Sequence record: OR846149.1
Length of the DNA stretch: 1,250 bases
Direction: 5' to 3' (one strand)
Origin: a phage
Both the position numbers and the translations under genes were made by a program. Shown here in pieces: positions 1 through 1,250 of the stretch (within the stretch, counting starts at the first letter, position 1; every line of letters begins with the position of its first letter). The notes beneath the pieces were generated by a model, which saw only the letters and a program-made list of their open reading frames with translations, made no database searches and was not told the origin of the DNA.

Positions 1-1250
1 GGTATTAATTACAATAACATGCTGTTAAGTAAAGTGTGCTGTGATGATTTTTCTGTTTCTTGGGATCCTGATTGGCCCAAATACGATCAATATCAAGCAC
101 TAGCGCCGTTTAATGAGCATGGTTCTTTGCAGGCAGGACTTGCAGCATTTGGGAATTTGATGGATGTCGTATTAGGAAATAGCGCTATCCAACTATCACA
201 TGTTATTGAGTCAGCAAGAATTTTACCTCCGCAAGGCAACAATGATCCCTTTTTATATGGGGCTATAACGGTAGGAACAGCATCCAAACTTGAAGTAGAT
301 AGGCCAGATATAAATAGAGTATATAGCCTTGCTGTTACGTCTGATCACGAAAGAGAAAGTGGCAGACCTTCTTCATGGTCTGCAGAAATTGATCAATTCA
401 CTTCTGGTATGCAAGATGGAAAGCGGAGACTTTTTGTTATTTCTGCCGGTAACAACTTAGATATTCGTCCTGACCAAGACTATTGGGATCAAGTCAATCT
501 CGCGCAGATAGAAGATCCAGCTCAAGCATGGAATGCTATTACTGTTGGGGCATATACAGAAATGACCACAAATGATGATCCATATTTTGAAGGTTGGTCA
601 CCATTCGCAATGGCGGGTGATGTTGCTCCATCAAGTCGTTCTTCGGTGAATTGGGCGTGGAGAAAGCAAGCACCATTTAAGCCAGATGTAGTTGCCGAAG
701 GTGGTAATCGACTTTTGTCACCTGATAAGACTGAACTCAGTAATGAAGATACTGTTGGATTATTAACAACATCAGGAAAAACTACCGGTCAGGTTTTTGA
801 GCGGGGTAGTGATACAAGCGCTGCGTGTGCGTTAGTCTCGAGATGTGCGGCTCAGTTAACAGCCGAGTATCCTGAACTTTGGCCCGAGACTATACGAGGT
901 TTGATAATTCACTCTGCGGAGTGGACTCCACGAATGATGGAACGATTTGGTTTATTAAGTGCAGTACATAGTCCTAAAGTAGCAAAAGAAACATTATTGC
1001 GTACGGTTGGGTATGGTGTAACAAACATTGACAGAGCTAGATATAGTGCTGACCATGCGCTTACTTTGATCGCTGAAGGCGAAATTCAGCCATTTATCAA
1101 ATCCCAAGATGCTAATGCGTCATCTGATCCTAAACTAAATCAAATGAAACTTTATCAGTTACCTTGGCCTCTCGCGGAATTGCAAAATTTGCCGCCAGAG
1201 TTAGAAGTTAAACTCAAAGTTACTTTATCTTACTTCATAGAACCTAATCC
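1..1250 (+). CDS. Partial (5'- and 3'-truncated) subtilisin-like serine peptidase, S8 family, with a C-terminal extension
   Basis: Manual frame +1 translation gives 416 codons with no stop, beginning GINYNNMLLSKVCCDDFSVSWDPDWPKYDQYQALAPFNEHGSLQAGLAAFGNLMDVVLGNSAIQLSHVIESARILPPQGNNDPFLYGAITVGTASKLEVDRPDINRVYSLAVTSDHERESGRPSSWSAEIDQFTSGMQDGKRRLFVISAGNNLDIRPDQDYWDQVNLAQIEDPAQAWNAITVGAYTEMTTNDDPYFEGWSPFAMAGDVAPSSRSSVNWAWRKQAPFKPDVVAEGGNRLLSPDKTELSNEDTVGLLTTSGKTTGQVFERGSDTSAACALVSRCAAQLTAEYPELWPETIRGLIIHSAEWTPRMMERFGLLSAVHSPKVAKETLLRTVGYGVTNIDRARYSADHALTLIAEGEIQPFIKSQDANASSDPKLNQMKLYQLPWPLAELQNLPPELEVKLKVTLSYFIEPN. It carries the S8 signature motifs in canonical order (His, oxyanion Asn, KPD-x-x-A-x-G, Ser, terminal GYG-x-x-N). 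No Shine-Dalgarno sequence precedes the first in-frame ATG (nt 19-21), and the frame is open from nt 1, so the start is upstream; the stop is downstream of nt 1250. Confidence 0.85.
118..147 (+). other. S8 catalytic His motif (H-G-S-L-Q-A-G-L-A-A; His = codon 40, nt 118-120)
   Basis: Translated HGSLQAGLAA fits the subtilase His-box pattern H-G-[ST]-x-x-A-G-x-x-A-A (compare HGTHVAGTVAA in subtilisin BPN'). It lies about 111 residues upstream of the oxyanion Asn, compatible with S8 spacing plus a modest insertion. Confidence 0.7.
436..462 (+). other. S8 oxyanion-hole Asn motif (V-I-S-A-G-N-N-L-D; Asn = codon 151, nt 451-453)
   Basis: Hydrophobic strand followed by A-G-N matches the subtilase VVAAAGN(E/D)G box that carries the oxyanion-hole Asn (Asn155 in subtilisin BPN'). 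Confidence 0.7.
679..708 (+). other. Conserved subtilase K-P-D-[IV]-x-A-x-G motif variant (K-P-D-V-V-A-E-G-G-N)
   Basis: Matches the (K/E)PD(I/V)xAPG(V)xI segment that precedes the Ser box in S8 peptidases; here Pro is replaced by Glu. Its position between the Asn box and the Ser box is as expected. Confidence 0.6.
805..840 (+). other. S8 catalytic Ser motif (G-S-D-T-S-A-A-C-A-L-V-S; Ser = codon 273, nt 817-819, codon AGC)
   Basis: D-T-S-A-A-C-A-L-V-S-R-C-A-A-Q-L aligns with the subtilase Ser box G-T-S-[MF]-A-[AS]-P-x-V-[AS]-G-x-A-A-L. The nucleophile Ser sits in T-S-A-A, followed about 65 residues later by the domain-terminal GYGVTNIDRA (compare GKGLINVQAA in subtilisin). Confidence 0.75.
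1048..1250 (+). other. C-terminal extension beyond the S8 catalytic domain (continues past the window); function unknown
   Basis: The S8 fold normally ends shortly after the G-[YK]-G-x-x-N-x-x-x-A segment (here nt 1009-1038). The reading frame stays open for at least 68 more codons (DHALTLIAEGEIQPFIKSQDANASSDPKLNQMKLYQLPWPLAELQNLPPELEVKLKVTLSYFIEPN) with alternating hydrophobic/polar runs (EVKLKVTLSYFIEP) suggestive of beta strands. I recognise no motif in it. Confidence 0.5.

Follow-up and report, generated by a model that had tools for sequence, protein, structure and literature searches.

An internal segment of sgiT (S025), the predicted S8 protease gene of the sgiAT pair carried by SGI1 and related elements

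Closest described systems

The sgiAT operon of Salmonella Genomic Island 1 (SGI1) comprises the genes S026 and S025, which lie 20 bp apart; S026 encodes the antitoxin, an AAA-ATPase, and S025 the toxin, a subtilisin-like protein (Huguet et al. 2016, PMC5006074). In that work, induction of S025 lowered transformation efficiency 100- to 1000-fold and left E. coli dead in less than 30 min, and co-expression of S026 reversed the toxicity. Deletion of sgiAT led to more loss of SGI1 in the presence of the IncA/C plasmid R55 and had no effect without the plasmid; when no selection was applied, the deletion brought the cells carrying SGI1 alone from 40% down to 9% (PMC5006074). When sgiAT was placed on a test plasmid under its native promoter, post-segregational killing was not seen (PMC5006074), and the classical addiction model is therefore incomplete for this pair. 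The promoter itself is strong and constitutive and is not SOS-regulated in Salmonella (PMC9927553). All SgiT homologues were reported to adjoin a SgiA homologue (Huguet et al. 2016, PMC5006074).

The products of S026 and S025 are 50% and 36% identical, respectively, to IetA and IetS of plasmid pTiC58 (PMC5006074). The Agrobacterium pTiC58 locus (Yamamoto et al. 2009) is reported to resemble that of SGI1 in having an AAA+ ATPase gene followed by the gene for a large S8 protease, and in both systems the protease is the toxin and the ATPase the antitoxin. According to the account given in PMC13069673, which cites Gao 2020, IetAS systems protect against phage and require protease activity to do so. 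In ietHAS variants a helicase has been recruited as an essential part and protease activity is likewise needed for defence, and as late as April 2026 the mechanism of IetAS was given as unknown (PMC13069673). The role demonstrated for the SGI1 pair is island maintenance (PMC5006074), unlike that reported for the anti-phage IetAS systems of Gao et al. 2020.

An open frame within sgiT

The window, by which we mean the whole stretch of 1,250 nucleotides that was analysed, gave on re-translation 416 codons without a stop in frame +1 (positions 1-1250), which bears out the preliminary description of an uninterrupted plus-strand frame over its entire length. The other five frames contain 16-46 stops each, and the longest open run among them is 88 codons. 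With the base composition of the window (41.8% G+C), a run of 416 codons free of stops has a probability of about 1.2e-12, and in 20,000 shuffles the frame never stayed open. The G+C content at codon positions 1, 2 and 3 is 53, 44 and 28%, the usual pattern of a genuine coding sequence in AT-rich DNA. This frame is missing from the ORF list of the window because both gene ends lie outside it, the lister being set to drop any ORF that is cut by an end of the source; both this rule and the existence of 847-aa copies agree with the earlier supposition that neither gene end is in the window. A frame missing from the track is thus, in this case, an artefact of the window edge and not an unannotated gene. 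On the opposite strand the longest ORF is 64 aa, an Rfam search of the window with E values up to 1 returned no match, no direct or inverted repeats were found in the window, and promoter-like and terminator-like sites in it were present only at the level seen in shuffled sequences. Nothing besides the sgiT segment is encoded in the window.

The translated window is identical at 415 of 416 residues to positions 287-702 of the Salmonella protein 'S025' in UniProt (C4XV85, C4XV85_SALET), the sole difference being an Ala in place of the Val of the entry at residue 639 (window aa 353). At the DNA level, a C instead of a T at position 606, synonymous for Phe, is the single difference from the copies in Providencia, Rheinheimera and the Salmonella record OX345320. 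The exact 847-aa protein is found on more than 1000 contigs from Salmonella, Proteus, Vibrio and other Gammaproteobacteria, and the 90% cluster that holds it also holds the UniProt entry 'S025'. The window matched positions 44-1293 of OX345320.1, a 20-kb Salmonella enterica contig, at 99.9% and, from window position 604 onwards, OR851626.1, a contig of 1591 bp; a megablast against complete E. coli genomes gave no match. When one genome per species was scanned, the protein turned up at 100% identity in Providencia sp. and Rheinheimera nanhaiensis, at 99% in Thorsellia anophelis and at 95% in Marinomonas shanghaiensis, together with about 30 further distant homologues of 36-84% identity. That hosts so far apart carry almost the same DNA suggests a mobile element, and R. 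nanhaiensis E407-8 is among the listed carriers of an SGI1-related element (PMC9035990). Among the matches listed by a large-database protein search, none exceeded 86% identity, only fragments of up to 728 aa were present, and the protein's own cluster of 474 members was absent, although the same collection contains that cluster and the exact 847-aa protein; the word-index search evidently passed over or withheld it.

Seven primers from Huguet et al. 2016, given in AF261825 coordinates and including the qPCR pair for S024 as well as the primers that mark the start and the stop of S025, match the Providencia chromosomal locus (L003) exactly and collinearly, with AF261825 position = 34035 - L003 position. 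From this linear relation, S025 is AF261825 complement(22349..24892) and the window is complement(22785..24034). Synteny, the 20-nt spacer and the primers all agree that the SgiT of SGI1 (Huguet et al. 2016, PMC5006074) is the product of the gene to which the window belongs. Judged by sequence, the window comes from the interior of sgiT (S025), in the backbone of SGI1 or of a close SGI1-related element. The gene is already known and named; its function was published in 2016, and it is annotated as 'S8 family peptidase' in many genomes. The features of the window and of the surrounding locus are collected in Table 1.

Table 1. Features read in the window and in the Providencia copy of the locus (L003)
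Feature	Sequence	Coordinates	Strand	Basis or remark
S025/sgiT internal coding segment, codons 287-702 of 847	window	1..1250	+	open frame, 415/416 aa match to C4XV85
Peptidase_S8 domain, most of it, without the first strand (which bears catalytic Asp285)	window	1..1017	+	
Catalytic His326 codon CAT, motif NEHGS, window aa 40	window	118..120	+	sequence read
Oxyanion-hole Asn437 codon AAC, motif SAGN, window aa 151	window	451..453	+	sequence read
Nucleophile Ser559 codon AGC, motif DTSAA, window aa 273	window	817..819	+	sequence read
C-terminal domain, first 77 residues (626-702 of 626-847)	window	1018..1250	+	conservation, AlphaFold secondary structure
Start of the most conserved block V693-F721, VTLSYFIEPNPGRRGY...	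window	1219-1250	+	conservation profile
sul1	L003	671-1597	-	
blaOXA-10	L003	3922-4812	-	
catB	L003	4791-5423	-	
ant(2'')-Ia	L003	5504-6253	-	
Integron integrase IntI1	L003	6183-7196	+	
Resolvase	L003	7470-8054	+	
329-aa AAA+ ATPase, sgiA (S026)	L003	8133-9122	+	
S8 protease sgiT (S025), 847 aa	L003	9143-11686	+	window = 10001-11250, Providencia chromosome
645-aa OLD-type ATPase-nuclease (S024)	L003	11752-13689	+	PADLOC GajA, 1102 bits
553-aa UvrD-like helicase (S023)	L003	13686-15347	+	GajB, 906 bits
321-aa Integrase_1-type protein	L003	16323-17288	+	

As an internal segment, the window by itself cannot establish the completeness of its copy, and this copy might be a truncated and non-functional sgiT remnant, produced when IS26 or IS6100 mediated a deletion extending out of the resistance region. 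Deletions from that region through res and the ORFs beyond it have been described (PMC9035990), partial S025 proteins (for example of 808 aa) are recorded in S. Kentucky, and two of the matching records begin inside the gene: OX345320 starts at about codon 272 of S025 and the 1591-bp S. Kentucky contig starts at window position 604. However, contig ends in draft assemblies are no evidence of truncation, and the window contains neither a frameshift nor a stop and is one synonymous base away from intact copies. Moreover, a toxin gene that had lost its 5' end would be simply inert. We consider a remnant of this kind unlikely.

The origin given for the two matching records was also considered. OR851626.1 is labelled 'Salmonella phage S.Kent 1-2-1' (UNVERIFIED_ORG), and we rejected a phage origin: all that the record holds is the 3' part of S025 together with the 5' part of S024. 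It is bacterial SGI1 DNA, which probably reached a phage preparation by host contamination. A plasmid origin is likewise unsupported for OX345320, named 'plasmid: 134', which is a linear 20-kb contig with SGI1 backbone genes (L001). This contig opens inside S025, with positions 1-43 preceding the window match, and the break could come from a repeat such as an IS element in the strain or from the assembly.

The protease domain and the regions around it

The Pfam family PF00082 (Peptidase_S8) matched the window with E=5.3e-62 and 210 bits over residues 1-339, close to the codons 1-348 that had been guessed beforehand, and over profile positions 12-288 of 288. Against the full protein, the score was 226 bits (cut-off 21.8). 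The preliminary description had reported S8 motifs in the window, and this stands for the His, Asn and Ser motifs; the catalytic Asp (LDTG) lies outside, D285 being two codons upstream, so that longer copies read SILD-TG and the window opens at the Gly. The profile match begins at position 12 because the first strand, which bears this Asp, is just outside the window. In an alignment of full-length homologues with 36-100% identity, D285, H326, N437 and S559 were invariant in all 28. With the Asp-His-Ser order and oxyanion Asn characteristic of family S8, and with a subtilisin-like alpha/beta fold in the predicted structure, SgiT is a member of peptidase family S8 and a predicted protease.

A search of PDB sequences found no subtilase, giving a single chance match at E=0.37, which places SgiT in a divergent branch. 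Its likeness to solved subtilases emerged solely through the predicted fold, and identity to Vpr (8jmw), Tk-SP (3afg/9ues), CspB (4i0w), KP-43 (1wmd) and PCSK9 is merely 17-23%. It also differs from classical subtilases in being cytoplasmic, in having no signal peptide and in needing a partner ATPase, and furthermore in its extensions, some 280 aa on the N-terminal side and, on the C-terminal side, a conserved domain of some 220 aa to which no Pfam family corresponds.

These extensions agree with the earlier expectation of a protein of more than 416 aa with additional N- and/or C-terminal modules. Copies identical or nearly identical to this one encode a full protein of 847 aa, whose S8 domain covers residues 279-625, which leaves about 278 aa on the N-terminal and about 222 aa on the C-terminal side of the core. 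Residues 626-847 are beta-rich in the secondary structure of the AlphaFold model and gave no match to Pfam, and residues 1-285 gave only a non-significant match to DurN (E=0.053, below the cut-off). The N-terminal region may contain a prodomain-like fold, for which there is a weak structural hint. PF27160, which a precomputed table lists for some homologues, was not reproduced in our local Pfam search, which gave only PF00082 for the proteins P0012 and P0046. In the alignment of 28 homologues, the C-terminal region is conserved as strongly as the catalytic core, and residues 693-721, inside which the window stops, are the most conserved block of SgiT. Just past the window end and in the middle of this block is a basic loop, RRGYRTR (residues 705-711, L003 about 11255-11275), with pLDDT below 50. 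Perhaps this flexible and conserved loop is a candidate site for partner binding or for cleavage.

The strength of the S8 match, and the presence of secreted subtilases and lantibiotic leader peptidases among the structural neighbours, could be taken to mean that SgiT is an ordinary secreted degradative subtilisin or a protease for peptide maturation. However, no signal peptide or membrane segment was found in SgiT (the maximum Kyte-Doolittle value over 19 residues is 1.25), which indicates a cytoplasmic protein and led us to reject secretion. The protein is also toxic inside the cell (PMC5006074) and is paired with an AAA+ ATPase in 34 of 36 loci, and clustering of the flanking ORFs revealed no lantibiotic or other substrate genes conserved nearby. 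A secreted or maturation protease is therefore hardly credible here.

The ATPase-protease pair, its neighbours and its function

Neighbouring genes were read on the copies L003 and L001, which differ from the window at 1 of 1250 bases. The order res, S026, S025, S024, S023 and, further on, an mpsA-like gene, with a class 1 integron beside res, is that of the published SGI1 backbone, and this gene order is confirmed in PMC9035990. The spacer between S026 and S025 in L003 is 20 nt, the same as published (PMC5006074), and the gap between S025 and S024 is 65 nt, all four genes from S026 to S023 being on the same strand in L001, L003 and L004. The ATPase SgiA has a Walker A motif, GSPGTGKT, at residue 131. 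In the SGI1 literature, S024 is an endonuclease (ybjD) and S023 a helicase (uvrD). These two genes (L003 11752-15347, equivalent to L001 1795-5390) overlap by 4 nt and match GajA and GajB over their full length. Taking S024 and S023 as Gabija matches, two defence-type modules stand side by side on SGI1 beside the resistance integron.

In 34 of 36 related genome loci, the next gene upstream of the protease on the same strand encodes an IetA-like ATPase and ends 7-130 nt before the protease gene. Clustering of all flanking ORFs in 31 loci found no third gene conserved with the pair, and we rejected such a gene on this basis. The pair by itself is the functional unit, with Gabija a frequent neighbour but no part of it. 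Gabija-like genes are downstream only in the SGI1-type loci L001, L003 and L004, with a remnant in L005. In Vreelandella nanhaiensis (L024), homologues of GajA (76%) and GajB (74%) occupy 4010-7602 on the minus strand, directly upstream of the pair at 8155-11680 on the plus strand; the adjacency of Gabija and an IetAS-like pair thus recurs outside SGI1 in a different arrangement. In the Halomonadaceae loci L022-L029 and L034, ORFs resembling type I restriction-modification genes (about 598, 425 and 1070 aa) lie within 5 kb of the pair, for example at L022 11730-14796, as judged from sequence alone. If these ORFs are type I restriction-modification genes, the flanks would be a defence-island setting.

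It might be proposed that the pair forms a single four-gene system with the GajA/GajB-like S024 and S023. The common strand and the 65-nt gap agree with this proposal, as do the presence of Gabija next to the pair in L024 and the precedent of the essential helicase recruited by ietHAS (PMC13069673). However, about 30 related loci have the pair without Gabija and share no third gene, and the Gabija genes of L024 are on the opposite strand. SGI1 relatives without S023-S024 exist in the backbone class that otherwise bears sgiT-sgiA (PMC9035990), and S026 and S025 alone reproduce both toxicity and neutralisation (PMC5006074). We consider a four-gene system very unlikely.

The best explanation as a whole, to which we assign a probability of about 0.92, is that the window lies in sgiT, the gene of a cytoplasmic S8 toxin that is neutralised by SgiA and stabilises the island. 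The present analysis shows which gene this is, that its catalytic residues are intact and conserved, that it is paired with the ATPase and that its product is cytoplasmic, and published work on the same gene contributes the toxicity, its neutralisation and the stabilising role. Under this explanation, sgiT is co-transcribed with sgiA (S026), which ends 20 nt upstream, and SgiT made without SgiA is toxic to the cell whereas SgiA neutralises it, so that the pair would act as an addiction module. It would keep the island in the population once a helper IncA/C plasmid triggers excision. By extrapolation from the IetAS family, the toxicity of SgiT could arise from proteolysis of host proteins. The ATPase might act on the protease itself, whether by remodelling it or by way of its non-catalytic domains at the N or the C terminus. 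Our literature search turned up neither work with a catalytic-Ser mutant of SgiT nor a biochemical assay of the protein.

The main role of the pair could instead be abortive infection directed against phages or plasmids, as in other IetAS systems, with island stabilisation secondary. Infection would then free or activate the protease and bring about cell death or arrest, which is compatible with a toxin-antitoxin function. S026 and S025 match the IetA model (E=2e-78, 262 bits) and the IetS model (E=2e-24, 84 bits, residues 234-778) of PADLOC, and a PADLOC survey of S. Typhimurium found ietAS and Gabija on SGI1 (PMC9958689). The protease-dependent phage protection by IetAS mentioned above, the position of the pair next to Gabija in SGI1 and in L024, and the restriction-modification-like flanks in Halomonadaceae all point the same way. 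However, the 84 bits obtained with the best PADLOC IetS model make SgiT only a distant relative of IetS, and the NCBIfam equivalogs for the anti-phage proteins gave 38 bits for S025 (IteS cut-off 900) and 214 bits for S026 (IteA cut-off 510). Scores below these cut-offs make the SGI1 pair a distant subfamily of the tested systems, akin to the IteS/IteA equivalogs while falling outside them, and an anti-phage function is not transferable by that model. Furthermore, we found no phage assay of the SGI1 pair in the literature, and the phenotype demonstrated for it is island maintenance (PMC5006074). Abortive infection as the main role is possible, and we lean against it.

Perhaps both functions are combined. 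SgiT might be present in the cytoplasm as a latent subtilase that its N-terminal region and its AAA+ partner restrain until a cue from a phage or plasmid releases it, so that sgiAT would double as an abortive-infection defence in a small islet with Gabija beside the multidrug-resistance integron. This idea is tentative, and we think it more probably wrong than right.

As a discovery the window adds little, belonging as it does to a known and experimentally characterised gene, and it marks its source as a bearer of SGI1 or of a related mobilisable multidrug-resistance island. The lasting interest lies not in the window itself but in how IetAS/SgiAT pairs kill, what they cleave and what triggers them, and the mechanism is most naturally sought in the N- and C-terminal domains, which are conserved but non-catalytic. 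If SgiT is indeed a latent subtilase that serves in defence, resistance genes and phage defence would spread together on SGI1.
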